IMG/VR virus record: IMGVR_UViG_2609460346_000011
Span: 1 to 12,006 of that record
DNA: 12,006 bases
DNA from: a virus
Taxonomy: Duplodnaviria; Heunggongvirae; Uroviricota; Caudoviricetes
Direction: 5' to 3' (one strand)
Within the stretch, counting starts at the first letter, position 1. Each line of letters begins with the position of its first letter. The translations under genes were made by a program, and so were the position numbers. Below the pieces are notes generated by a model. The model saw nothing but the letters and a program-made list of their open reading frames with translations, ran no database searches and was not told the origin of the DNA. Below are positions 1 through 12,006 of the stretch, in pieces.

Positions 1-1263
1 ATGAAACTGACTGATGTAGCTGTACGTAACGCCAAACCAGATAAGGACAACAACAAAATTAAAAAACTTCGAGACGGGAAAGGGCTGTATCTCTATGTTC
101 ACCCCAACGGCTCAAAATACTGGCGCTTTCGCAAGGTTATCAACGGTAAAGAAACGACCCGAGCTTTAGGCATTTATCCTGCCGTAACACTTGCACAGGC
201 AAGGAACGCTCGTGATGAATATCTGGCGAGCCTGGCTAAAGGCATTGACCCACTGCACACGCCAAAACCTCAAATAGTGCTTTTTGAAGACGTTGCCAGA
301 GAGTGGCACAGCCGGAAAAAGGGCTGGAGCGAATTACACGCGCAAAAAGTCTTAAAAGACCTGGAAAACCACATCTTCCCCATTCTAGGTAAAAGGCCAA
401 TTAACGAGATCACAACCATGGATCTACTGATTCCTTTACGCAAAATGGAAGATAAAGGAGTGCTTGAGACAGCATCACGTAACAAGCAGCGAATGAACGC
501 CATTATGCGCTACGCTGTACAGAATGGAATGATTAAATACAATCCAGCGCAGGAGCTAAACGGTGCAATCGAAACTAATAAAACCAAACATCGCCCTGCT
601 CTTCCCCTTGAGCGATTACCTGAATTACTTGGCAAAATAAATGATTACCACTATAAGATGAATGGACGGTTATTAACGCAATTTGCACTAAAATTAAATT
701 TATTAATTTTTATTCGCTCAAGTGAATTGCGTTTTGCTCGTTGGAATGAAATTGATTTTGATAAATCAATGTGGGTAATACCAGCAGAACGCGAAAAAAT
801 AGAAGGCGTAAAATATTCATATCGTGGAACGAAAATGGGAACCCCTCACGCCATCCCTTTACCCACTCAGGCCATGCAGCTTCTTGACGATATAAGAAAT
901 ATATCCGGTGATGAAGTGTTTATTTTCCCCGGCGACCATTACCAGATAAAACCAATGAGCGAAAACACCATTAACAAGGCATTACGCCACATGGGATACG
1001 ACACAAAAAAAGATATTTGTGGTCACGGATTCAGGGCCATGGCCTGTTCGGCGCTGACAGAGTCAGGCAGGTGGACAAGAGAAGCCGTTGAGCTTCAGAT
1101 GAGTCACAGGGAAAGAGGCAGTGTCCGGGCTGCATACGTTCACAGAGCTGAACATATGCAGGAACGCCGCCGAATGTTGCAATGGTGGGCTGATTATCTC
1201 GACACCTGCAAGACGGCATATATTGCCCCCTATGATTTTAAATGGGCTAACGAAACAGACTGA
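1..1263 (+). CDS. int: Tyrosine site-specific integrase, P4/CP4-57 (IntA-like) family, 420 aa
   Basis: Full-length ORF with TGA stop at 1261-1263. The N-terminus (LTD..VRNAKP...GKGLYLYVHPNGSKYWRFR...YPAVTLAQAR) matches the P4-type integrase N-terminal domain as I recall it. The C-terminus carries recombinase-like motifs (HGFRAM, RAAYVHRAE). The ORF starts on base 1, so the upstream attachment site and RBS are not visible. Confidence 0.9.
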   Translation: MKLTDVAVRNAKPDKDNNKIKKLRDGKGLYLYVHPNGSKYWRFRKVINGKETTRALGIYPAVTLAQARNARDEYLASLAKGIDPLHTPKPQIVLFEDVAREWHSRKKGWSELHAQKVLKDLENHIFPILGKRPINEITTMDLLIPLRKMEDKGVLETASRNKQRMNAIMRYAVQNGMIKYNPAQELNGAIETNKTKHRPALPLERLPELLGKINDYHYKMNGRLLTQFALKLNLLIFIRSSELRFARWNEIDFDKSMWVIPAEREKIEGVKYSYRGTKMGTPHAIPLPTQAMQLLDDIRNISGDEVFIFPGDHYQIKPMSENTINKALRHMGYDTKKDICGHGFRAMACSALTESGRWTREAVELQMSHRERGSVRAAYVHRAEHMQERRRMLQWWADYLDTCKTAYIAPYDFKWANETD

Positions 1264-1863
1264 ATCAACTCAACAAACTAAACTACCCCAAGCGGCTGAA
1301 TTAAACTCAAGGCGTGGACAATATGTGGACACGCCGATTTTTTTATCTTTTAAAATCAATAGAATAAGACACTACTAAAAGCACCTAGTGATTTTTTAGC
1401 CTCAAAACCAAGTATATCTATTTGATTTTTAATGTGTTTTTAATTAATGACCAGTTCTTTTGATAAAAACTAGAAAATCAAACTGTTTTATCGATATTGT
1501 TTTTTGATATGCATCACATTTTCAACTCTTTTTTTGTTTTCAGAATCCACTATTCCAGCGTTCGCAAGCATTGCATCCCCCCGGAACGGGCTTTCCTGGT
1601 GCCTGAAAGGGTAAGTCAGCAAACCTTTCTGGCACTAACTTGTTATTCTTTGTCGCTTTCTGGCGGTTTAAAGTGGCTCTAAATGTATATTTCACGCATG
1701 GAACAAATCTAACTGTCCATGTCAACCCCATCTGAAAATCGACCTGATTTACAAATCCGCTTTTCGTTGTTTATGATTTTTCTCGTCCCGCAGACGACCG
1801 CGAGATCTTACATGCTCCCACTGTGAGCTAACGTAAAGTGTTCAGCATATACAGGAGGCCAAT

Positions 1864-2085
1864 ATGTCAGCATACTCACAGACCAGCGAAAGGCGGATTC
1901 AAAAATTAATAAGACTCCCCAGAGTCATTGAAATCACAGGGAGATCAAGAGCTCGAATTTACGAAGATATAAAATCTGATATCTTCCCCAAACCAATAAA
2001 AATAGGCCCTCGTGCGGTTGCATGGGTTGAAGAAGAAATTATCGACTGGATAGAAGAAAGAAAACAACAACGTTTTCAGGCTTAA
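1864..2085 (+). CDS. alpA: AlpA-family phage transcriptional regulator / excisionase-like protein, 73 aa
   Basis: Strong SD (caggagg) 6 nt upstream of the ATG. The pattern IRLPRVIEITGRSRARIYEDI...FPKPIKIGPRAVAWVEEEIIDWIEER fits the AlpA/Vis helix-turn-helix signature (TG.SR..IY ... FPKP.K.G.R.V.W...EI..W). Confidence 0.85.
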   Translation: MSAYSQTSERRIQKLIRLPRVIEITGRSRARIYEDIKSDIFPKPIKIGPRAVAWVEEEIIDWIEERKQQRFQA

Positions 2086-2701
2086 TTATTTTCATTTTAT
2101 AGTCAGCATGGCGCGATATGCGCCTAAACACTTCATACAATAAGAAACATCACTTAACCAAAGATGCATTCATGGTTTAAAAGATGCTCTACCCTTGTTA
2201 AGGAAACCGGAGTAAACAGATATAACAAAATAAAAGAAAGTGGACTATCAGAGGGATATTTTCATCTGTACGTCACACGTAAGAAATATATTTCAAGGAG
2301 CTAAGTTTAAAATCAACATTTATTTACAGAGTATAAAATTGAGTTATTCCGGTTACATTAACCGGATTGGGTGAACTGTTATGATAAATACAAGTAATGG
2401 CGACGTGGGTATATTCTCCACGAGGCATAAACAAACAAACGCTTTAAACATCATAACCGGATGTCCGGGAATACAGCATTATCCTGCTGACTGGAGCGGG
2501 CACATTGCTACATGTGAGGGAAGGAGGCCGGGTACTGGCAGCAGAGTCAAAAAAAGAAGCTCGCTAAAGCTAGCGAGCCAACCAGTCAGTAGTACGCGAT
2601 GGATCTGACATTAAGAATAATAGGCAGAAATAATTATGGCTTTTTTACTCTTAAAAATCAATCACTCAGCGCAAGTGAGCAAAAATAATTTGCAATATTG
2701 C

Positions 2702-2731
2702 TTGACTCGCTTTTTTGTCATGGCGTATCGT
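2702..2731 (+). promoter_or_regulatory. Putative sigma70-like promoter (TTGACT, ~18 bp spacer, TATCGT) reading into the repeat region
   Basis: TTGACT at 2702-2707 and a weak -10 candidate TATCGT at 2726-2731, with AT-rich DNA upstream. Pattern match only. Confidence 0.25.
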
Positions 2732-2756
2732 TTGCCCGCACCTCATAAAGCGGGTG

Positions 2757-2941
2757 CCGGGTTTAGCAGCCTGAACAATCAAGCGGGTAGCCGCTATATT
2801 TCCGTAATGCGGTTTTTTTGTGCCCGTAATTCCACCCTACCCCGTATTATGGCGGGGCGGAATGGGGGGGCCTTTGCGCTCGCTGGTTCCTTGATTGCCA
2901 GTCTGCTAACCCTGTTACGTCCCGCCACCATGTTTAGCAGC
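2757..2941 (+). promoter_or_regulatory. Non-coding region with direct 10-mer repeats (GTTTAGCAGC at 2761-2770 and 2932-2941) and an internal partly complementary segment (2897-2914); candidate RNA-RNA regulatory module
   Basis: The exact 10-mer occurs twice 171 bp apart. The reverse complement of 2897-2914 (CAGGGTTAGCAGACTGGC) aligns with the first repeat context (CCGGGTTTAGCAGCCTG) at about 14 of 16 positions with one bulge. The 173-aa ORF called across this region translates to low-complexity sequence that does not look protein-like. Confidence 0.35.
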
Positions 2942-2983
2942 GTGCTGGCGAGACTCCGTAAACTTAATCAAGGAGCCGCCAAA

Positions 2984-3157
2984 ATGGCTATATCAACACG
3001 CCCTGATTTTATCTGGCGCTTTATGCAGTGCCACGGTAAAAATATTCGCCTTCATACCGTTACCGCTGCCAGTGAGCGCGAAGCGCGCGCCATGCTTCCG
3101 GCATCCCGTCTGGTCTTTGTTGCCCGTATCCGTGTCCGGGAGGCGTGCCATGTTTAA
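2984..3157 (+). CDS. Hypothetical small protein, 57 aa
   Basis: Internal ATG of the 2636..3157 ORF, with SD AGGAG at 2971-2975 eight nt upstream. Its stop overlaps the next gene's start. No family recognised. Confidence 0.45.
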   Translation: MAISTRPDFIWRFMQCHGKNIRLHTVTAASEREARAMLPASRLVFVARIRVREACHV

Positions 3158-3332
3158 GCTCCTTATCACCCTGATTAACTACCAGAACGGCGACGTTCGC
3201 CAGATGATTCATTCCTGGGAATATCCGACTTATGACGATGCATGGCGTGATGCCTGTCGTATGGCATATTCCCGCAATGACAAACAGGGGCGATTAACCC
3301 ACAAATGCGCAGTAAAAATCATGGAGGGGTAA
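3150..3332 (+). CDS. Hypothetical small protein, 60 aa
   Basis: ATG at 3150 preceded by GGGAGG (3135-3140) and overlapping the stop of the upstream ORF (translational coupling). The longer 3072 start lacks an RBS and overlaps the upstream gene. No family recognised. Confidence 0.4.
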   Translation: MFKLLITLINYQNGDVRQMIHSWEYPTYDDAWRDACRMAYSRNDKQGRLTHKCAVKIMEG

Positions 3333-3334
3333 CG

Positions 3335-3523
3335 ATGTACGAGATTCATATTAAATTGCGTAATGTGGTAACAGGAGAGGAAGAAAACTTCTACACGATA
3401 CGTAAATATAAATCAAAAGGAAAAGCGGCAAGGGACGCTATCAGGTATACGGAAGAAATTGCGCCGAAATATCAATTGCCAGAAGAAGAATTCACAGCAT
3501 CAGTGGTAAAGGTGAAGAAATGA
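3335..3523 (+). CDS. Hypothetical small protein, 62 aa (Lys/Glu-rich)
   Basis: ATG at 3335 with SD GGAGGGG five nt upstream; stop TGA overlaps the next start (ATGA at 3520-3523). No family recognised. Confidence 0.45.
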   Translation: MYEIHIKLRNVVTGEEENFYTIRKYKSKGKAARDAIRYTEEIAPKYQLPEEEFTASVVKVKK

Positions 3524-3738
3524 AAAGCCGTTCAATATCCCGTAAAAATAATGGCAGTGGTGAAAAACGTTTCTTTGTGTTGGGTTATGCCGTTAATAAA
3601 CGTGGGTTAACCAAACATGCACATGCAACGGTATACGGAACAGGACCGGGCGAAGCCATACGCCGCGCAGCCGAAGGGCTGGAAGAGCTGGGAATGACAC
3701 ATTTCAGGGCATTGAAGGTTACGCAGCTTTCCGCCTGA
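3520..3738 (+). CDS. Hypothetical small protein, 72 aa
   Basis: Start overlaps the upstream stop (ATGA) and a purine-rich stretch lies upstream. No family recognised. By position it could correspond to the small ORFs preceding the primase gene in P4-like elements. Confidence 0.45.
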   Translation: MKSRSISRKNNGSGEKRFFVLGYAVNKRGLTKHAHATVYGTGPGEAIRRAAEGLEELGMTHFRALKVTQLSA

Positions 3739-3805
3739 TTCCTTAATTACCAACTGATAACTGAATTAAATTTATATTTCGATCTTAACGGGTCGGGGAG
3801 TTTTT

Positions 3806-4105
3806 ATGTCTAAACGTCAGAATAGCGAAATTTTTTTAGATAGAGAATATGCTGGCTTTTTTACAGAAAGTGCAAAGGAAGATCTCACAGATGTGATTAA
3901 TCTCGTCAGTTTAATATCTGTGGTCTTTGGCGATAAAAATGGTAGAGCATCAGCAGAAATTATAAATGAAGAAATTGTATCTCTGTCTAACATTATTTAT
4001 AGGGAATTACAATCAATAAAATCTGGTATGCATTCATCCGGCGGAATTTTTTCATGGCATAGCGCCGAAACCGCCGGGATTGCCAAAGCAATAAGCAACG
4101 AGTAA
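3806..4105 (+). CDS. Hypothetical protein, 99 aa, encoded in a markedly AT-rich segment
   Basis: SD GGGGAG six nt upstream of the ATG. Codon usage and GC content are clearly lower than in the flanking genes. A perfect hairpin follows immediately downstream. Confidence 0.5.
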   Translation: MSKRQNSEIFLDREYAGFFTESAKEDLTDVINLVSLISVVFGDKNGRASAEIINEEIVSLSNIIYRELQSIKSGMHSSGGIFSWHSAETAGIAKAISNE

Positions 4106-4115
4106 TTAATAAAAA

Positions 4116-4140
4116 CCCCACTGCAAAAGGTGCAGTGGGG
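4116..4140 (+). terminator. Perfect 10-bp stem hairpin (CCCCACTGCA / AAAGG / TGCAGTGGGG), intrinsic terminator or RBS-sequestering structure
   Basis: Perfect inverted repeat seen directly, preceded by an A-tract and followed by a U-rich stretch. The right arm overlaps the purine-rich SD (GGTGGAG, 4138-4144) of the primase gene. Confidence 0.5.
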
Positions 4141-4153
4141 TGGAGTTTTATAT

Positions 4154-6823
4154 ATGAAATCTGACATCAGAAAAGAGATTATTAACCGTCTTATCCGTGA
4201 TTACAACTTCAAAGAAGAAAATAACTACCTCCGATATGGTGTTTGTCCACAATGTGGAAAGAAAGAGCTGTTTACCAGCCTTGAGAAGCCGTACATCGTA
4301 CACTGCGGGCGTGAAAATAAATGCGGTACAGACCTGCTAACCAAAGAACTTTACCCGGATGTGTTTTCATCATGGTCAGATCGCTATATCAGCACGAAAG
4401 ACGAGCCATATGCAGCGGCGGCAGCTTATCTTCAGGAGGCGCGCAATATTGCTGTGGAGCCACTGAAAGGGGTATTCACTCAGGAGCGATACCAGGACAA
4501 GGAAAGCGGCGAACAGGCCGCTACCGTGCGTTTTACACTGGCTGACGGCGTGTGGTGGGAGCGCATCATAGACCGACCGGAACGCTTCGAACGGAAGGCG
4601 AATTTTTCCGGCAGCTACAAGGGGCTGTGGTGGGCTTATCCGGGAACAGATTTAAGCAGGGCCAAGGAAATCTGGATTTGTGAGGGTGTCTTTGATGCAA
4701 TCAGCCTTAACCAGAATGGCATTGCGGCCGTTTCTGTCATGTCTGCCGTGAATTATCCTGATGAGGCGCTGGAAGAACTGGCAAAGCAGTGCGGAGATAA
4801 TCCCCGTCCGGTTATTGTGTGGGCGCTGGATAACGGGCGTGCAGGTGAGCGTTACGCGAAAAAACATGCAGAACGCAGCGCCGAAGACGGCTGGAGAACG
4901 GCGGCGGCGTTACCGGGTAAAAACAGCAATAAACGCGACTGGAATGATTTACACACCGCCGGAAAGCTGCGTAGCCATGATGTAAAAAGATACCGTTATT
5001 ACGGTGATTTATTACTGGCGAAATCCCCAAGAGATAAGGCGCTGATAATATTTTCCTTTTGTGAGCGGAAGGAATTTCATTTTACCTTTGATAACCGTGT
5101 TTTCTGGTTCAAACTGGACATTGAGCGCTATATGAAGGCTGTTGAGCGTGCCAAGAATGAGCGAAATGTTGATGAGGATGAAGCGCGCAAAATTGCACTT
5201 AAGGAATCCGGTACTGTAAAAGAAATCGCAAACTGTAACCCAGCGCCGCTTTATTACATTCGAAATAATGATACGGATGAAGCCTGGTATTACTTCCGTG
5301 TTACGTTCCCGGATGGTGCTACGGTGAAAAACACCTTTACATCAGGACAATTAACATCCGCATCTGAATTTAAAAAACGCCTGTTGCATGTGGCAAAAGG
5401 CGGTATTTATACCGGAACGACTGCGCACCTTGATGCATTAATAAAAAATGACCTTCCCGCAATAAAAAATGTTATCGGTCAGGATTTTATCGGATACAAC
5501 AAAGAGATTGGCGCGTGGCTGTTTAATGATGTCGCGGTTTGTAATGGTAAAACCTACGAAATCAATGAAGAGGATTATTTTGAAATTGATGGCATAAACG
5601 CAAAACCATTGAATAAAAAACCAATATTGCAGATTAACTATAAAAAACCGGATAAATTTACAATATCCTGGGTGGAAGATCTCTGGCTGGCGTTTGGTGA
5701 AAAGGGAATTATTACCCTGGCCTTCTGGCTGGGTTCGTTGTTCAGCGAACAAATCAGGCAGAAAAACACGTCTTACCCTTTTCTTGAGATTACCGGAGAG
5801 CCTGGAACGGGTAAAACAACGCTGATTGATTTTTGTTGGCGTTTGTGTGGCCGTGACAACTATGAAGGTGTTGATCCAACCAAAGGATCGGAATCAGGCT
5901 GGAAGCGAACTTTTGGACAGGTCGCCGGATTACCTGTTGTTCTGATTGAAGCAGACCGGGGAGACAATGCGCAAAAAAGAGGCGCGTTTGACTTCGATAA
6001 CCTGAAAAGCCTCTATAACGGTGGTGGTATTGGGGTACGTGGCGTTAAAACCAATGATAACGCCACATATGACCCCGTTTTTAAGGGGGCTGTCGTGATT
6101 GCGCAAAATGCCACGGTAAACGCCTCGTCGGCAATTATTGAGCGCCTGGTACGTGTATACACCGATAAAAAACGCCACTCACCAGATAGCCGACTGGCAG
6201 CAAAACGGCTGGAGCTTTACCCCGTTGAGCAGGTATCAGGTTTTATCCATCGGGCAGTAAGTCAGGAACGGACGATTATGGAGACGTTTATGGCACTCTC
6301 GGATTCTGAGACAACCCGCCTTTATAGTTGCGAAAATATTCGTCATCAGCGTATTGCCAAAAATCACGCGCAACTTATCGCGCTGGTCAGGGCGCTGAAA
6401 TGCGTTATTGATATCCCGGATGAATGGCTTGATGCCACATGTCTGGAACTGGAGCGAATGGCAGAGGAACAGGCTAAAGCGGTAATGGATGACTTGCCGG
6501 AAGTGATGGCGTTCTGGGAGACGTTCGACTATCTGGACGGCATCACAGCATACGGCGTAAATCATTTTGGCAAGGGACGGCAGAATGAGTTTGCCATCAG
6601 TATCCCGCAACTTGAGCAGGTTGCCGCCGTTCACCACGTGAAGATCCAAACCAATCCCGAAATGATAAAGCTTCTCAAGGCTGGCCGTTCTCGATCGCTG
6701 ATTGGATACAAGCCCGTCCGTAGCGAGGTATCCAGACAGGCGAACGCCGGGAGGGGAATAGCCGAGGCCAGAGAGAAGGAGGTATTGAAATGCTGGATAT
6801 TTAGTAACAAGGAGGGGGCTTAA
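4154..6823 (+). CDS. DNA primase/helicase-type replication initiator (zinc ribbon + TOPRIM/EGxxD primase + P-loop NTPase), P4 alpha-like in architecture, 889 aa
   Basis: Start taken at the ATG at 4154 (MKSDIRK) rather than the upstream in-frame ATG inside the hairpin. N-terminal Cys cluster CPQCGKK...HCGRENKCG; EGVFDA primase-type motif followed by an acidic DNGRAGE segment; Walker A GEPGTGKTT near residue 550. Confidence 0.85.
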   Translation: MKSDIRKEIINRLIRDYNFKEENNYLRYGVCPQCGKKELFTSLEKPYIVHCGRENKCGTDLLTKELYPDVFSSWSDRYISTKDEPYAAAAAYLQEARNIAVEPLKGVFTQERYQDKESGEQAATVRFTLADGVWWERIIDRPERFERKANFSGSYKGLWWAYPGTDLSRAKEIWICEGVFDAISLNQNGIAAVSVMSAVNYPDEALEELAKQCGDNPRPVIVWALDNGRAGERYAKKHAERSAEDGWRTAAALPGKNSNKRDWNDLHTAGKLRSHDVKRYRYYGDLLLAKSPRDKALIIFSFCERKEFHFTFDNRVFWFKLDIERYMKAVERAKNERNVDEDEARKIALKESGTVKEIANCNPAPLYYIRNNDTDEAWYYFRVTFPDGATVKNTFTSGQLTSASEFKKRLLHVAKGGIYTGTTAHLDALIKNDLPAIKNVIGQDFIGYNKEIGAWLFNDVAVCNGKTYEINEEDYFEIDGINAKPLNKKPILQINYKKPDKFTISWVEDLWLAFGEKGIITLAFWLGSLFSEQIRQKNTSYPFLEITGEPGTGKTTLIDFCWRLCGRDNYEGVDPTKGSESGWKRTFGQVAGLPVVLIEADRGDNAQKRGAFDFDNLKSLYNGGGIGVRGVKTNDNATYDPVFKGAVVIAQNATVNASSAIIERLVRVYTDKKRHSPDSRLAAKRLELYPVEQVSGFIHRAVSQERTIMETFMALSDSETTRLYSCENIRHQRIAKNHAQLIALVRALKCVIDIPDEWLDATCLELERMAEEQAKAVMDDLPEVMAFWETFDYLDGITAYGVNHFGKGRQNEFAISIPQLEQVAAVHHVKIQTNPEMIKLLKAGRSRSLIGYKPVRSEVSRQANAGRGIAEAREKEVLKCWIFSNKEGA

Positions 6824-6825
6824 GT

Positions 6826-7827
6826 ATGTCGATCAGAAAGATGGATGATGGGCGATGGCTGCTCGATATCAGGCCCCAAGGGGCGTACGGCAAACGGATA
6901 CGTAAAATTTTTGTCAGGAAAGGGAGTGCGGAGGTCTTCAAAGAACATATTTTACAGAATTTCCATAACAACCCATGGCTGGCTAAACCTGCTGATCGAC
7001 GGAGATTATCAGAGCTGCTTGATATATGGTGGATGCTTGATGGCCGTAACCAGGCTTACGGTGATACCTACAGGATTCGGATGGAGAAAGTGATTCGTGA
7101 AATGGGAGATCCGCGTGCCAGCCAGATGACGCAAAAATTTATGCTTGAGTATCGGTCAGAGAAATTACAGGCCGGCTTAATGCCATCCAGCATTAATCGT
7201 GACTTGTGCGTTCTGTCTACCATGTTCACGGTGCTGATTGAAGCTGAGGTCTTTCACAACCCGAACCCTGTACGCGGTATACGCAAGCTAAAAATTCAGA
7301 ATACAGAGATGGCCTTTCTTTCTGATGATGAGATTGAGCGGCTTCTTGAGCGACTGGAGGGGGATGCGCGTCGTGTTGCCATTCTGTGTCTTTCTACTGG
7401 TGCCCGATGGAGTGAAGCATCGGAACTACGTGGAGAGCACATCATTGGCAACCGGGTGACGTTCTTTAACACCAAAAACGGAAAATCCCGTTCGGTTCCT
7501 GTGGCTGATTCGGTCGTGCCGCTGATTAAGACCCACCGGACAGGGGTGTTGTATCAGGTTGATTATCTGAAGTTCCGGGAGATCCTTCAGGAGGTGAAGC
7601 CGGATTTACCGAAGGGGCAGGCTACGCATGTCATGCGTCATACATTTGCCACACACTTTATGATGAATGGCGGAAATATTGTTACGTTACAACGAATCCT
7701 GGGGCATGCCACGATTCAACAGACAATGACGTACGCGCATTTTTCTCCCGACTATCTGGCGGATGCCATGAGGTTTAACCCGATAGCTAACATGGCATTC
7801 ACTGAACAAGAAGAGCCAGCAGAGTAA
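6826..7827 (+). CDS. int: Tyrosine integrase, P2 Int-like family, 333 aa
   Basis: Near end-to-end resemblance to the P2 integrase as I recall it (MSIRKMDDGRWLLDIRPQG..GKRIRK...AILCLSTGARWSEA...GQATHVMRHTFATHFMMNGGNIVTLQRILGH...TYAHF). Catalytic Arg, HxxR box and Tyr are present. The ATG lies 2 nt after the primase stop, with the SD (AAGGAGGGGG) inside the primase 3' end. Confidence 0.85.
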   Translation: MSIRKMDDGRWLLDIRPQGAYGKRIRKIFVRKGSAEVFKEHILQNFHNNPWLAKPADRRRLSELLDIWWMLDGRNQAYGDTYRIRMEKVIREMGDPRASQMTQKFMLEYRSEKLQAGLMPSSINRDLCVLSTMFTVLIEAEVFHNPNPVRGIRKLKIQNTEMAFLSDDEIERLLERLEGDARRVAILCLSTGARWSEASELRGEHIIGNRVTFFNTKNGKSRSVPVADSVVPLIKTHRTGVLYQVDYLKFREILQEVKPDLPKGQATHVMRHTFATHFMMNGGNIVTLQRILGHATIQQTMTYAHFSPDYLADAMRFNPIANMAFTEQEEPAE

Positions 7828-7857
7828 CCCGCAGAACGCTACATTCACAGCAAAAGA

Positions 7858-7882
7858 GGTCAGTTTTCCACTGGCCTTTTTT
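7858..7882 (+). terminator. Rho-independent terminator after the P2-type integrase
   Basis: Stem GGUCAG/CUGGCC (one G-U pair) with a 7-nt loop, followed by a run of six T. Confidence 0.6.
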
Positions 7883-8073
7883 GTTGGCCAAAGCCAACGG
7901 TAACAGCAATGCGATGGAGGCCATATTGCAGTGGTGTCGCCATCAATTTTTTTTGCTCTCCCCCCTGGTTATCAGAAAGAGTCAAATAATGGCGAGATAC
8001 ATTTCAATAACAGAGAGTTAATGATAGAGATACAGAATAAGTGAGTTTGATTAACATTTTAAAGGGTCGCGCT

Positions 8074-8397
8074 AAAATCCGGGGGGGGGTGCGGAAACGG
8101 GTTACAAAGGTTACAAACAGAAAAATATATTATATATCAATACATTATAATACATTTAAAAGGTTACAAACGGGTTACAACAGGGTTACATGTAACCTTT
8201 ATGTAGTGGTTACTGTTGGTTACAGGTTAAATTTATAATTAATTGATAATTAATCTGTTTTTGAGAGCTGCAACCTCGTGTAACCTTCTGTAACCTCAAA
8301 AAGGTTACAAGAAATATGTTTTAAAATCATATGACTATAGTGTGTTTTAGGGGGTTGTAACCTTTGTAACCCGTTTCCGCACCCCCTACCGGATTTT
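8074..8397. repeat. Iteron cluster: about 12 copies of GGTTACA/TGTAACC in both orientations around AT-rich DNA, bounded by 43-bp inverted repeats (8074-8116 and 8355-8397, 41/43 identity); putative replication origin
   Basis: Counted directly: forward copies at 8100, 8109, 8162, 8173, 8184, 8219, 8303; reverse copies at 8191, 8279, 8289, 8356, 8365. Includes the palindrome GGTTACATGTAACC at 8184-8197. The interior is AT-rich and there is no convincing coding potential. Confidence 0.6.
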
Positions 8398-8614
8398 GAG
8401 GCAGAGCCCCAAAACAACTGGCCTGACCTCTAACAAAAATGCAACATTAATCATTGATTTTTTGGGGGCTGTCAGTCACGGGGAGTTGCCCTGTTGTTTG
8501 GCAGAAAAATGAAGTATGTACATGCGCGGCGGGGATGGTAAAAAACGTAATACACGCGGCGCAGTTGCCATAAAAAATCTCTCAAAAGCACTCTTTTTGA
8601 CGCTATTGTTCATC

Positions 8615-8644
8615 TGCACAAAAGTGCACAAATTTGCACAATTT
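8615..8644. repeat. Three direct TGCACAA(A/T) repeats phased at exactly 10 bp (8615, 8625, 8635), with a fourth copy at 8707
   Basis: Direct reading of TGCACAAAAG TGCACAAATT TGCACAATTT. Helical-turn phasing suggests a protein binding array or bent DNA. Confidence 0.4.
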
Positions 8645-9004
8645 TTTAGAGTAACTTTTTGCCCATCCGGCCCAGTACTGGCGCGCCCGGAGGGCGATTT
8701 CGTGCGTGCACAAAAAACGGTGAGTTTTTCGCGCGCAGGTGACGGGGGAACAGCACGCGTTTCAGGGGGTAAATTACATTTTCGCTAAAGGCTGCGGGAA
8801 TGCCCCGACCGGGTTAGTTTTATCGCCAGCCAGAGCCGTTCTTACGGCAAGAGAGAACTGATACGGGGAATGTGACGAGTGAGCATGGGAACGGCGCGCC
8901 CGTGCGTAATACGCGGCGACTGCTGCGGGTTTATTTGATACAGCCAGAGGGGGGCGGCAGAAGATATAATAGGTTAAATTTCACACCAGTAAGAGGAGCG
9001 TGAT

Positions 9005-9187
9005 ATGTCTTTCCCTTGCCCGGCCTGTGGCGCTTCAGCCCGCACCCGTGGTCGTTCGTTGGAAGAACACGAACAAAACATCTACAGAACGTATTACCAG
9101 TGCAATAATATTGAGTGTGGGGCTTGTTTTTGTACGCTTGAGTCGTTTGTACGCATTACTAAGCGCAGGAAGTCGAAAACTTCATAG
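9005..9187 (+). CDS. ogr: Ogr/Delta-family zinc-finger late-gene transcriptional activator, 60 aa
   Basis: SD AAGAGGAG upstream. CPAC...(x)...YQCNNIECGACFCTLESF matches the Ogr/Delta C-x2-C / C-x4-C zinc-finger signature and the FxTxES motif of P2 Ogr as recalled. Confidence 0.85.
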   Translation: MSFPCPACGASARTRGRSLEEHEQNIYRTYYQCNNIECGACFCTLESFVRITKRRKSKTS

Positions 9188-9237
9188 TGATTTGTATAAC
9201 ACAGCCAGCGAGTGTGACCGGCTGCGTTATTTCTGTA

Positions 9238-9471
9238 TTACGTCGTGTGGTTCTGGTCATTTGCCCAGGCCCACACATCCCCCGCTACATTGCGCCCGTT
9301 GCAGTCTTCTTCCTGCGTTTCCCCGGCCTTAATTCCCTGACTGATAAACATTCTGACGCACTGGGAGTAGTTCATCTCTCTGTCCTGACATATCTGATTT
9401 ATTTTATGGTCGATTTCGTGCGGGATACGAATACAGCGTAATACGCATCGCATTTTCTTTTGTTTTTTCAT
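9238..9471 (-). CDS. Small hypothetical protein (77 aa) with a ribbon-helix-helix-like N-terminus; possible DNA-binding regulator
   Basis: Minus-strand ATG at 9471 preceded by AGGGAGG at seven nt spacing. The N-terminus MKKQKKMRCVLRCIRIPHEIDHKINQICQDREMNYSQCVRMFI has a strand-helix-helix pattern reminiscent of Arc/CopG-type proteins. The overlapping + strand ORFs look like junk. Family assignment is tentative. Confidence 0.4.
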   Translation of the reverse strand: MKKQKKMRCVLRCIRIPHEIDHKINQICQDREMNYSQCVRMFISQGIKAGETQEEDCNGRNVAGDVWAWANDQNHTT

Positions 9472-9626
9472 AGTGTTGCCTCCCTGATTGTTTATGCCGG
9501 GATTTAACACCCGCGATACAAGAAAGCGTAATACAACAGTATTGTGAGCGTATTACGAGAACAAAATCGGCTGGAATGTATTACGCAATATGGAAAAAAT
9601 CGGCGTAAGTAAAAAAATGTATTACA
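9436..9626. promoter_or_regulatory. Divergent intergenic/promoter region with five copies of GCGTAATAC/GTATTACGC in both orientations
   Basis: Motif at 9436, 9526, 9549 (inverted), 9577 (inverted) and 9618 (partial). Related longer copies (CGTAATACRCGCGG) occur at about 8549, 8899 and inside the capsid gene at about 11177. Confidence 0.35.
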
Positions 9627-9636
9627 GGAGCAAATA

Positions 9637-10347
9637 ATGGATATAACTCAGGCAAGCGCCGAACATCAGGTATGTAAAGCACAGTTTGATACAGCCATGG
9701 CAAAACTCAGTGAACAGGAATCATTAATCACCAATCTGGAAGCAACTATCGAACAGACGAAAGGGGAGCTGGAATCTCTCGATCGTGACTGGCAGAACTC
9801 AATCCTGTCTGCGCTGGGCGTAAAAACGGAAGCCTCCGCGAAATTATCCATTCAGGCGGGTGTGGCGCGAGAAAATCTTGAGCGTCTGCGGGTGCTGCAT
9901 GATGAGGCGCGCATCAGGCTACTGGAGTGTCGTTATAACGCGGCAGAGGCTGGTTGTGCTTACGAAAGCATTGATAATAAGTTGCGGGCAGAGATATTTG
10001 CAAAAGCACTTCCCGAACTGATTAACGAGCTGACCCCTGCTCTGTTATTGATTCGTGGTTTATGTGAGCTGCTTGGCCAGCCGCTGTATAACGCAGAAAA
10101 GAAAATATGCGAAACACTGAAAGCGACAGATACTGCTGAAAGTGTCGGGATGATTCGCGGCCGGATTAACGATACCGAAAGCGACACCTCCAGCCCGCTG
10201 CGTTATTGCCCGGAGAAACTCCCGGATTCGGTAAGCCGCGCAATCAGGAACGCCCCTTCACCTGTACAATGGAGCGCGGCGCGACAGAATCCAGAAAAAA
10301 TGCGCGACCTTGCGGAGGGCAGAGAACTCTGCCGGGGGTGGCAGTAA
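9637..10347 (+). CDS. Coiled-coil alpha-helical protein, 236 aa; putative capsid scaffold or size-determination-like (Sid/Psu/GpO-like) protein
   Basis: SD AGGAG seven nt upstream. The sequence is rich in Ala/Leu/Glu heptad-like segments. It sits immediately upstream of, and is translationally coupled to, the capsid gene (TAATG overlap at 10345-10349). The coding call is reasonably safe; the function is inferred from position and composition only. Confidence 0.5.
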   Translation: MDITQASAEHQVCKAQFDTAMAKLSEQESLITNLEATIEQTKGELESLDRDWQNSILSALGVKTEASAKLSIQAGVARENLERLRVLHDEARIRLLECRYNAAEAGCAYESIDNKLRAEIFAKALPELINELTPALLLIRGLCELLGQPLYNAEKKICETLKATDTAESVGMIRGRINDTESDTSSPLRYCPEKLPDSVSRAIRNAPSPVQWSAARQNPEKMRDLAEGRELCRGWQ

Positions 10348-11618
10348 TGGGCGGTCTGAATACTCCACATTTGCACGGCGCTGATATAGTGAGCCGACTC
10401 AGGGGATTAATGTCCCGGAATCGCCTGAAAGCAAACACAGCAAGCATAAGCGATGAGACGCGTCGCGCGCTGGACAATGAATATCAAAAACTGGAGCGTG
10501 AGCTTGAGCTTCACACCCTGCATACTGCAAGCGGTGGGGGTAATAACGACGGCATTGAGCGTTATAATTGCACTGCTGATTCTGTTGTATCACAACGAAA
10601 TCAACAGGCTCAGATGGTTTTCAATTGCGCTATCGAGTCGATAACCGGAAAGCATCCGAAGGATTTGCACTTTTCTGGTGACACTGCGCGCTATTCGTCA
10701 GAAGTTGAACCCGTTCCCCGCCAGAGTGCAACGCTTGCCAGTGGATGGCAGGCAAATTTCCTTGCTGAAATAACTCCCGTGCCTGTTACGGATATATCAG
10801 GTCGGGTTGTGCTGGTAGACGCTTCGGGGCCGTTGGCACGTACATCGCCACCTCACGAGCGCCGTTCGCCACTACAGGCGCATTCACTGGTTTCAAGGGG
10901 CTACCGCTGCGAGCAGGTTAATTTTGATTTTGCGCTGAACTACGACAATGTTGATGCTCACACATCCGCAAACGGTCTTGAAGGAAGCGCACGGGCTGCT
11001 TTTGAACGCCGGAAATGGCTGGATTTGATTCAGATTGGTTTTAACGGTACGCACTATGCCGATACATCAGATCCCGGAACATATCCGGGGCGTGATGATT
11101 GCGGCGTGGGCTGGTTGCAGAAGTTTCGAAATGAAGCGGCGGGAAGGGTTATCAGCGGCCTTTCTGTTTCATCACCGAAAAGTAATACACGCGGTACACA
11201 CCATACGATAGATGCGCTCGTTCTGGATGCCTGGCAATCCATGATTGATGAACAGTGGCAGGAAGGCATTGTGGCCGTATGCAGTCACAATACGCTGGTC
11301 CGTAAGCAATGGCCTTTGATAAACCGTCTTGATCCATCGCAGATGAATCAGGAAATTTTGCTTAACGAGGAAATCATTAAAAATCCCGTTCTGGGGAATC
11401 TCCCGGCTGTGACCGTTCCATTTTTCCCGGACAATGCTGTATTGATCACACCTCTTGCCAATCTGTGTCTGTACTGGCAGCGTGGTTCCGTTCGTGGCCT
11501 GGTAAAAAACGAGCCTCAGTATAATCGCCTCGCGTTCTATGAGTCCTGTAACCTTGACTGGGTGGTGGGGCAATATGAGGCAGGGTGCTTACTGGATGGG
11601 ATTGACTGGAAAGAATAG
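10347..11618 (+). CDS. Major capsid protein, P2 GpN-like family, 424 aa from the ATG at 10347 (alternative internal start at 10614)
   Basis: Extended motif agreement with P2 GpN as I recall it: CEQVNFDF, GFNGTHYADTSD, GVGWLQKFRNEAAGRV, IDALVLDA, GNLPAVTVPFFPDNAVLITPLANL, YESCNLDWVVGQYEAGCLLDGI. SD-like GGGGGTGG lies upstream of the 10347 ATG. About 89 residues precede the region that aligns with the GpN N-terminus. Confidence 0.8.
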   Translation: MGGLNTPHLHGADIVSRLRGLMSRNRLKANTASISDETRRALDNEYQKLERELELHTLHTASGGGNNDGIERYNCTADSVVSQRNQQAQMVFNCAIESITGKHPKDLHFSGDTARYSSEVEPVPRQSATLASGWQANFLAEITPVPVTDISGRVVLVDASGPLARTSPPHERRSPLQAHSLVSRGYRCEQVNFDFALNYDNVDAHTSANGLEGSARAAFERRKWLDLIQIGFNGTHYADTSDPGTYPGRDDCGVGWLQKFRNEAAGRVISGLSVSSPKSNTRGTHHTIDALVLDAWQSMIDEQWQEGIVAVCSHNTLVRKQWPLINRLDPSQMNQEILLNEEIIKNPVLGNLPAVTVPFFPDNAVLITPLANLCLYWQRGSVRGLVKNEPQYNRLAFYESCNLDWVVGQYEAGCLLDGIDWKE

Positions 11619-11640
11619 CAAGGAAATTTCCGGTAACGTT

Positions 11641-11658
11641 GAGGGCTTCTCAGCCCTC
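11641..11658. terminator. Hairpin GAGGGC/TTCTCA/GCCCTC between convergent genes; probable bidirectional terminator
   Basis: Perfect 6-bp GC-rich stem followed by CTTTTACTT on the + strand. It lies between the capsid stop (11616-11618) and the toxin stop (11662-11664). Confidence 0.5.
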
Positions 11659-11661
11659 CTT

Positions 11662-12006
11662 TTACTTAAGCAGATGCTCTCCACCAATCAGGGTTATGAC
11701 TCTTTCAAGCACATCATTAAATACCCCATCTTCTGCCTCTGTGATTAAGCGCGCTTTCCGCTGACGCCAGTCAAGGGTTTGAATGAGTGTGGTTGCTACC
11801 ACGCTGGGGGCGTCCAGATTTGTTACCGGAACTTCTGTGGGAGCATTTCGTATGCTCGTACTTATGGAGCAGCATATGACAAGCCCGGTGAGTCGGTTAT
11901 ATTGCTCATGGGATAGTATGAGTGCCGGGCGATACTTTCCGATCTCTTTTCCTTTCTGCGGCTCAAAATCCAGCCAGCAAATATCACCACGCTTAGGTAC
12001 AAACAT
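11662..12006 (-). CDS. Type II toxin, MazF/PemK/Kid-family endoribonuclease, 114 aa
   Basis: RGDICWLDFEPQKGKEIGKYRPALILS...LTGLVICCSISTS...VATTLIQTLDWRQRKARL follows the MazF/PemK pattern (RGDI..V.FDP..G.E..G.RPALVLS). The start codon sits on the last three bases of the window, so the upstream partner gene and promoter are not visible. Confidence 0.8.
   Translation of the reverse strand: MFVPKRGDICWLDFEPQKGKEIGKYRPALILSHEQYNRLTGLVICCSISTSIRNAPTEVPVTNLDAPSVVATTLIQTLDWRQRKARLITEAEDGVFNDVLERVITLIGGEHLLK

Follow-up and report, generated by a model that had tools for sequence, protein, structure and literature searches.

Phased repeats of a P4-related satellite of Escherichia coli very probably belong to a cos module of the type found in P88-like phages

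Introduction

What is the role of a set of short direct repeats laid out with strict regularity in a non-coding region of a small phage satellite? The question is raised by IMG/VR virus record IMGVR_UViG_2609460346_000011, positions 1 to 12,006 of which were analysed here (12,006 nucleotides, hereafter the window). In Escherichia coli TOE17, an island of 12.67 kb located between tRNA-Arg and dsdC matches this window at 99.8% identity, and both represent a small P4-related satellite. Between its gene for a P2-type tyrosine recombinase (int333) and an ogr/delta-like gene lie 1.2 kb of non-coding DNA, in which an initial annotation, made from the letters alone, had pointed to TGCACAA repeats spaced by one helical turn and to a second motif of about 14 bp. 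Arm-type integrase sites, Cox/Vis-type excisionase boxes or regulator operators were proposed there, in a region taken to hold the phage attachment site (attP) as in P2.

Our analysis leads to a different assignment. The explanation that best accounts for the region as a whole, to which we give a probability of roughly 0.8, is that the satellite carries a cohesive-end site (cos) for the terminase of a helper phage, with repeats matched to that helper, and that the second motif family is an operator.

The repeat array and the conserved module

The positions first reported for the phased triple (8615, 8625 and 8635) and for the additional copy (8707) proved exact. TGCACAA occurs exactly four times in the window, always on the + strand (8615-8621, 8625-8631, 8635-8641 and 8707-8713). 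Compared with shuffled sequence, it is the phasing of TGCACAA that stands out and not its count: four copies are ordinary (2.44 expected; 50 of 200 shuffles reach four), whereas none of 300 dinucleotide-preserving shuffles contained a 7-mer present three times at a fixed spacing of 8-12 bp. The real window contains two such arrays: TGCACAA, spaced by 10 bp, and at 8162 the GGTTACA iterons, spaced by 11 bp. No promoter was predicted at the TGCACAA repeats, and folding of 8600-8790 as single-stranded DNA revealed no special structure (z = -0.24). An Rfam scan of the whole window (E <= 1) returned only C4, isrK and c4-a1b1, at 2725-2932, and no match in 8540-8910, so that the repeats find no explanation in any known RNA.

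The context of the repeats emerged when 50,697 phage records were searched by sensitive blastn with the non-coding region as query: only window 8614-8780 was matched. The matched phages are P2-like (P88 and other Xuanwuvirus, Gemsvirus, Novemvirus and Reginaelenavirus; 70-82% identity). In nearly all hits, from phages and from the E. coli genomes considered below (72-82% identity), the match starts at 8613-8616, that is, at the first repeat, and ends at approximately 8774-8780. This module is the only DNA common to the satellite and P88-type P2-like phages. Its flanks are unrelated in all comparisons, and the DNA left of the first repeat is frequently a cargo-gene terminator in the phages. In all these phages and prophages, the module is intergenic, following the replication gene (gpA), ParM/ParR or variable hotspot cargo, and lies 290-500 bp before the portal gene (Q) end. 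This context was seen in P88, 500465-2, EC958, E2348/69, strain 4600 and phiT5282H, as well as in LZSFT34, S1-CAM, Chuche, 3LV2017 and E16KP0115. According to Rousset et al. 2022 (PMC9122126), the cos of P2-like phages sits precisely there, between the replication/hotspot region and the portal gene, and cos is the sole homologous region of P2 and P4. When 5,426 complete E. coli genomes were searched in the same manner, 1,173 carried the module and 56 carried it with satellite-specific flanks. The parts of the module and the adjoining segment are as follows.

8615-8780 (+): complete cos module, 166 bp, delimited by blastn against phages and the 5,426 E. coli genomes
8615-8641 (+): distal array, three TGCACAA at 10-bp spacing, at -123, -113 and -103 from the predicted cohesive end
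8642-8647 (+): T-tract after the third repeat, invariant in an alignment of 13 sequences
8707-8713 (+): proximal, fourth TGCACAA, 72 bp past the third repeat and 31 bp ahead of the predicted cohesive end
8738-8756 (+): predicted 19-nt cohesive end (cosN), GGTGACGGGGGAACAGCAC, by homology to P2 cosL
8757-8780 (+): conserved flank of cos on the portal-gene side, GCGTTTCAGGGGGTAAAT..., from the alignment
8447-8614 (+): variable segment from the iteron origin to cos, with two alleles (122 bp in the variant satellite L007 and in L098, versus 168 bp in the window)

Thirteen cos regions were aligned, from 3 satellites and 10 phages or prophages of E. coli, Enterobacter and Klebsiella. All four repeats are in register in 13/13 sequences and their GCA cores are invariant, for a mean column identity of 67%. 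Equally invariant are the T-tract that follows the third repeat and the greater part of GCGCGCA-GGTGACGGGGGAAC, whereas the spacer between the third and fourth repeats is far more variable. The predicted cohesive end, GGTGACGGGGGAACAGCAC, is identical to the annotated P2 cosL, GGCGAGGCGGGGAAAGCAC, at 14 of 19 positions, and Klebsiella phages are intermediate, with GGCGAGGCGGGGG at the aligned position; the nick positions predicted from this homology are uncertain by approximately 2 nt. Altogether, it is very probable that the TGCACAA repeats belong to a cos module.

Two minor observations concern the same alignment. In the spacer, at 8680-8696, each lineage has a short palindrome or hairpin that is GC-rich, different in sequence and similar in position: GGCGCGCC and CGCCC-GGA-GGGCG in the satellite, GGATCC-GTCAA-GGATCC in P88-type phages, and comparable stems in 186 and P4. 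Besides, phage Chuche (L094, PP925824) lacks, at approximately 2630-2650, 8 nt inside the predicted cohesive end (GGGAACAG, aligned to 8746-8753) that are kept in all other phages. This gap may have arisen during assembly, at the physical ends of the genome, and would then agree with termini at that place.

Comparison with P2, 186, P4 and other systems

For P2, P4 and 186, the distance of each repeat was counted from the base that opens the 19-nt cohesive end as annotated, and for the window from 8738 (predicted).

P2: TGCAT at -123, -111, -101 and -29
P4: TGCAT at -124, -111, -101 and -29
186: TGCAT at -124, -111, -101 and -29
Window: TGCAC at -123, -113, -103 and -31

The 3 + 1 TGCAY layout was derived in this analysis from P2, 186 and P4, and the third and fourth repeats are separated by 72 bp in these three genomes as in the window. 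The near-identical block of P2 and P4 (<= 3 mismatches) is exactly 55 bp long, from -29 to +25, and therefore opens with the proximal repeat; the proximal TGCACAA of the window corresponds to its opening bases. The block corresponds to the 55-bp core attributed to Ziermann and Calendar 1990 in PMC9594776 and PMC5694545. Upstream of it, P2 and P4 have in common only the distal repeats, as the islands GGTGCATG and TTGCAT. Across lineages, repeats two and three retain the bases on their 5' side (GTGCAY and TTGCAY, respectively). Given the kept layout and this context, the array of the P88 type and that of the P2 type seem to be homologues that have diverged.

The likeness with P2, 186 and P4 thus includes a portal-adjacent cos in the phages, a G-rich 19-nt cohesive end, a helper/satellite core opening with a TGCAY repeat approximately 30 bp from the end, and three more TGCAY repeats at approximately -100 to -124 beyond the 72-bp gap. 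Several differences exist: the TGCACAA repeats of the window follow a strict 10/10-bp spacing (versus 12-13/10 bp for TGCAT), the proximal repeat is at -31 instead of -29, and the block common to helper and satellite reaches 166 bp here versus 55 bp for P2 and P4. Moreover, cos is located here between the iteron origin and the ogr/delta-like gene, whereas that of P4 lies between psu and the cargo/int region.

Not all Peduoviridae have this layout, as HP1 and phiCTX have other cos-side repeats. In HP1, the TGCAY layout was not seen and the repeats are CACGGAAA, at -109, -45 and -15, while phiCTX has CGCAGAAAG three times, at -104, -58 and -48. The GenBank record of phiCTX annotates repeats R3-R6 and a site for integration host factor (IHF) in the last few hundred bp before cosR, which makes it a P2-like phage with annotated repeat families and a bending-protein site near cos; its repeat sequences and spacings nevertheless differ and it has no homology to the window.

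In phage lambda, cosB consists of R3-I1-R2-R1, sites bound by gpNu1, with a bend induced by IHF. The window resembles it in having several short repeats beside the nick site, presumed to load the small terminase subunit. Unlike those of lambda, the window repeats are located on the side of cosN opposite the terminase genes, and the spacer is without IHF consensus (8540-8800 searched).

A satellite cos copied from the helper, so that the helper terminase packages the satellite, is also described for SaPIbov5-type Staphylococcus aureus pathogenicity islands (SaPIs) and phage-inducible chromosomal islands that form capsids (cf-PICIs) in PMC5052747. The sequences and helpers of these elements are unrelated to the present satellite, which differs in addition by its P4-type immunity (C4, isrK) and its own divergent homologue of the P2-family capsid protein. 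Satellites with a helper cos are well known (P4, cos-type SaPIs), and the present one would add a P4-related satellite whose cos is matched to P88-type helpers. Two points may be under-appreciated, although we do not claim them as new: conservation of the module reaches well past the 55-bp core that is quoted, and a fixed 3 + 1 geometry with a lineage-specific word is common to P2, 186, P4 and the P88 lineage.

A model for packaging and helper specificity

The cos signal would let the terminase of the helper cut and package satellite DNA. By analogy with lambda cosB, the four repeats would be recognition sites of this terminase, most likely of its small subunit gpM. With three sites on the same face of the helix and the fourth some seven turns off, the DNA could be wrapped or looped, and the terminase bound to the repeats would place the nuclease/ATPase subunit gpP on cosN, approximately 30 bp further on. 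The repeat word (TGCACAA versus TGCAT) would match the satellite to P88-type rather than P2-type helpers. Indeed, the terminases of P88 and P2 share only 37% (small subunit, TerS) and 44% (large subunit, TerL) identity, a divergence which fits a changed recognition sequence. The distribution of the module among the E. coli genomes also fits a helper relationship, as a further cos of the P88 type is in excess in satellite-bearing genomes (39/56 versus 1117/5370 others; Fisher p = 8e-15, odds ratio 8.7), only 3 genomes having two satellites. We consider it probable, with distinctly less assurance than for their place in the cos module, that the repeats are terminase recognition sites determining the choice of helper.

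With this assignment, a region labelled attP or hypothetical protein becomes the packaging signal of the element. It predicts which prophages are able to mobilise the satellite, the P88-type cos being present in 1,173/5,426 complete E. coli genomes, and it provides a concrete mutagenesis map for cos recognition in the P2 family, namely four short repeats at fixed distances.

A second motif family

The 14-bp motif had been placed at about 8549 and 8899, and again inside the capsid gene near 11177. Its first copy, CGTAATACACGCGG, is exact, at 8546-8559. The second, at 8905, reads CGTAATAC[AC]GCGGCG and is identical to the 14-mer only if a 2-bp deletion is allowed, matching it at 12/14 positions when ungapped. 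The copy in the capsid gene, AGTAATACACGCGG at 11181-11194, matches at 13/14 and is probably due to chance, because it lacks the exact core and because several 13/14 matches are expected (our own estimate, for the 1.2-kb region against a 24-kb search space).

The true unit is not the 14-mer but its 8-mer core, CGTAATAC, found in 7 copies versus 0.22 expected, a number reached in 0/200 shuffles. All copies lie within 8546-9585 (8546+, 8905+, 9235-, 9437+, 9527+, 9550- and 9578-), five of them being additional to those of the initial annotation. The core is often inside a palindrome, GCGTAATACGC, which is perfect at 8904 and 9436 (GCGTA-A-TACGC) and partial around the other copies; those at 9527 and 9550 form an inverted pair. 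Six of the seven copies are kept in four other satellites, the copy at 9235 not being kept in all. Three locations are of particular interest.

8546-8553 (+): CGTAATAC copy 1; in either allele of the variable segment, the first TGCACAA lies exactly 69 bp downstream of it
8904-8914 (+): CGTAATAC copy 2, palindromic, approximately 55 bp upstream of the TATAAT (8965-8970) preceding the ogr/delta-like gene
9436-9585 (both strands): four conserved CGTAATAC copies, in or next to the divergent region between the gene of a 77-aa ribbon-helix-helix (RHH)-like protein and the operon of the 236-aa protein and capsid homologue

The first of these is informative as the two alleles of the variable segment are barely alignable (global score of 10.5 versus 3.1 +/- 1.9 for shuffled sequences; 41% identity past the motif). 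The only conserved island of the segment is AAAAACGTAATAC, identical in both alleles, and this identity at a constant 69 bp from the first TGCACAA points to selection on the motif. The segment itself (8447-8614, versus L007 5879-6000 and L098) has sharp edges at the origin end and at the first TGCACAA, and resembles an empty or minimal form of the exchange hotspot reported beside cos in P2 and P4. The exact edge of cos-adjacent cargo exchange is thereby marked.

CGTAATAC was not found in the P-O late-promoter region of the helper (P88, EC958); the motif is satellite-specific and unrelated to the helper. Judging from its arrangement in the sequence, it is likely to be the operator of a satellite-encoded regulator, so that the operator idea, which fails for TGCACAA as part of a cos module, survives for this family only. 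Such a regulator would co-ordinate the ogr/delta-like gene, the capsid-homologue operon and the cos-adjacent site. The first candidate for binding is the 77-aa RHH-like protein, whose sequence displays an RHH-like strand-helix-helix pattern and has sub-threshold matches to CopG, RHH_9, RelB/DinJ, VapB and ORF56 over residues 14-49; the second is the 60-aa Ogr/Delta-like protein. The CGTAATAC network offers a handle on late-gene regulation in a satellite that has P4-type immunity but its own capsid homologue.

In a scan of 8380-9700 for sigma-70 promoters and terminators, matches were no commoner than in shuffled sequences. Directly after the palindrome GCGTAATACGC and upstream of the TATAAT at 8965, a terminator-like hairpin is present at 8912-8937 (CGCGGCGACTGCTGCG and a T-rich tail).

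A wider proposal can be formulated from the two families, and we put it forward tentatively, as a generalisation that may well turn out to be wrong. The 3 + 1 TGCAY array would be the terminase-recognition element of the whole P2 family, extending approximately 95 bp past the 55-bp core, with a word that sets the helper. Satellites would switch helper by way of a cassette of approximately 166 bp, the first repeat would be the recombination boundary of the cos-adjacent variable/defence hotspot, and CGTAATAC, at 69 bp, could let a satellite protein modulate the satellite's own cos.

Alternative explanations

A first alternative is the proposal that TGCACAA repeats are arm sites or Cox/Vis boxes of an attP between the P2-type integrase gene and ogr. 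In its favour, arm sites are typically phased direct repeats, the gene of the 333-aa P2-type recombinase (Int_N and Phage_integrase domains) ends at 7827, and the ogr/delta-like gene at 9005 recalls the ogr-attP-int order of P2. Nonetheless, this proposal now appears extremely improbable. Integration occurred at tRNA-Arg, beside the other, 420-aa P4-family integrase: the 3' end of the tRNA-Arg gene, TTCCTGCAGGGGACACCA (L003 1405-1422), recurs as TTTCTGCAGGGACACCA at L003 14075-14091. These att cores are outside the window, approximately 180 bp before and approximately 470 bp after it, and lie 12,670 bp apart, hence a 12,670-bp element. Next to them, the only arm-like repeat, AAACGGGTA, displays the pattern expected of P4-family integrase arm sites: of its three occurrences in 14 kb, one adjoins attL and two, in tandem, adjoin attR.

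L003 1405-1560 and 13996-14091: arm-type-like AAACGGGTA repeats and att cores, the latter interval approximately 390-485 bp past the window end

By contrast, nothing interrupts the stretch from int333 to ogr in satellites inserted at two different places in the chromosome (the variant near hpt has the same unbroken order of int333, origin, cos and ogr), and this stretch is therefore not the crossover site. As for the repeats, in P88-type phages the array is conserved beside the cohesive end and the portal gene, far from the integrases, which speaks against arm-type sites, and it is common to phages that differ in their immunity and integration modules, its distance from cosN being fixed, which speaks against Cox/Vis-type boxes, although no comparison with the Cox-box consensus itself was made. 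Lastly, a 92%-identical copy of int333 exists in E. albertii without any neighbouring window DNA. A coding origin of the repeats deserves no more credit. The feature concerned overlaps cos:

8516-8788 (+): 90-aa open reading frame (ORF), 'hypothetical protein' WP_000281924.1 (RefSeq/Prokaryotic Genome Annotation Pipeline, PGAP)

PGAP annotates this protein in most satellite-carrying genomes, but leaves it unannotated in several; its N-terminal third falls in the non-homologous variable segment, its start is not conserved and Pfam gives no match. We rejected it as a gene: right behind the third repeat, a stop codon closes the frame in the variant satellite L007 and in all phages. The ORF is probably an annotation artefact, and the chance that the repeats are those of a coding sequence is very small.

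Two further alternatives retain the cos module or the CGTAATAC family and change the protein that binds. The TGCACAA repeats could be a phased bending element or sites for a host architectural protein rather than sequence-specific terminase sites. The 10-bp phasing, the invariant T-tract and the 72-bp gap (approximately seven turns) would suit bending or wrapping, and the P2-like phage phiCTX has its annotated IHF site and repeats beside cos. However, the repeat sequence, and not the spacing alone, is invariant within each lineage, the word differs between lineages whose terminases are just 37-44% identical, and no IHF consensus was found in 8540-8800. To our knowledge, TGCAY does not match the consensus of any common E. 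coli nucleoid protein. We thus regard this alternative as improbable. For the second family, the CGTAATAC copies might be late-promoter activator sites for an Ogr/Delta-like zinc-finger protein, from the satellite or the helper, instead of repressor operators. Copies do precede both the ogr/delta-like gene and the capsid-homologue operon, and the canonical P2 dyad TGT-N12-ACA is absent (0 versus 2.75 expected in the whole window), so that a different site would be needed if the promoters are activator-dependent. This is a possibility to be kept in mind, although we find it rather unlikely, given that the helper P-O late-promoter region (P88, EC958) lacks the motif, that the distance from copy to start codon is not constant and that the cos-side copy has no gene downstream.

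Several points weigh against the explanation that we prefer, a helper-matched cos flanked by an operator family. The co-occurrence test was carried out without clonality correction, many of the genomes being porcine enterotoxigenic E. coli, and it counted second cos copies that had not been inspected one by one. No phage record searched starts at the predicted cohesive end and the termini of P88-type phages are undocumented in those records, so that both the nick positions and the use of cos are deduced from homology. The protein binding the repeats may instead be a host protein or the large terminase subunit; their location on the cosN side away from the terminase genes is unlike that of lambda cosB, and the two perfect IHF sites are found only in the origin, with none in 8540-8800. 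Concerning the second family, the RHH assignment is sub-threshold, the single-sequence AlphaFold model of the 77-aa protein is poor (predicted local distance difference test, pLDDT, of 59), and no sigma-70 promoter was predicted beside most CGTAATAC copies.

The element and its other features

The gene order and content of the island identify it as a small E. coli P4-related phage satellite with an unusual late region. The features, in order, are the following.

1: 420-aa P4-family integrase with an arm-binding domain
2: AlpA
3: immunity region of the P4 type, with the RNAs C4 (antisense, 67 bits) and isrK (52 bits)
4: Icd-like gene
5: 889-aa toprim primase-helicase, not close to P4 alpha
6: second tyrosine recombinase, 333 aa, P2-type (int333)
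7: non-coding region, 1.2 kb
8: 60-aa Ogr/Delta-like gene, starting at 9005
9: 77-aa RHH-like gene, 9238-9471, minus strand
10: 236-aa coiled-coil protein, operon start at 9637
11: 423-aa divergent P2-family capsid homologue, approximately 35% identical to gpN of P2 or P88
12: MazEF, last gene pair ahead of attR

The view of 7830-9000 as a dense cis-acting, non-coding region was correct. The probable replication origin is located at 8074-8397. It is bounded by inverted-repeat arms of 43 bp each (8074-8116 and 8355-8397; 95% complementary) which enclose many GGTTACA iterons in both orientations, and its AT-rich centre has two perfect IHF consensus sites (8135+ and 8236-).

The int333 gene (6826-7827) directly follows the primase-helicase gene, without an att site beside it. 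Dimer resolution and an alternative integration route are both possibilities for its role. A search for its relatives in GTDB genomes returned 80 loci, none with the satellite; the closest, the 92%-identical copy of E. albertii (L011), is in an unrelated context and shares the recombinase gene only.

The late region (9637-11618) departs from the sid-delta-psu arrangement of P4. A search for homologues of the 236-aa protein yielded no more than 8 clusters, with identities of 89% or higher throughout; all clusters with a named source are from E. coli. The 423-aa capsid homologue carries an N-terminal extension of approximately 85-120 aa, and a satellite with its own divergent capsid gene and yet a helper-type cos merits a separate study.

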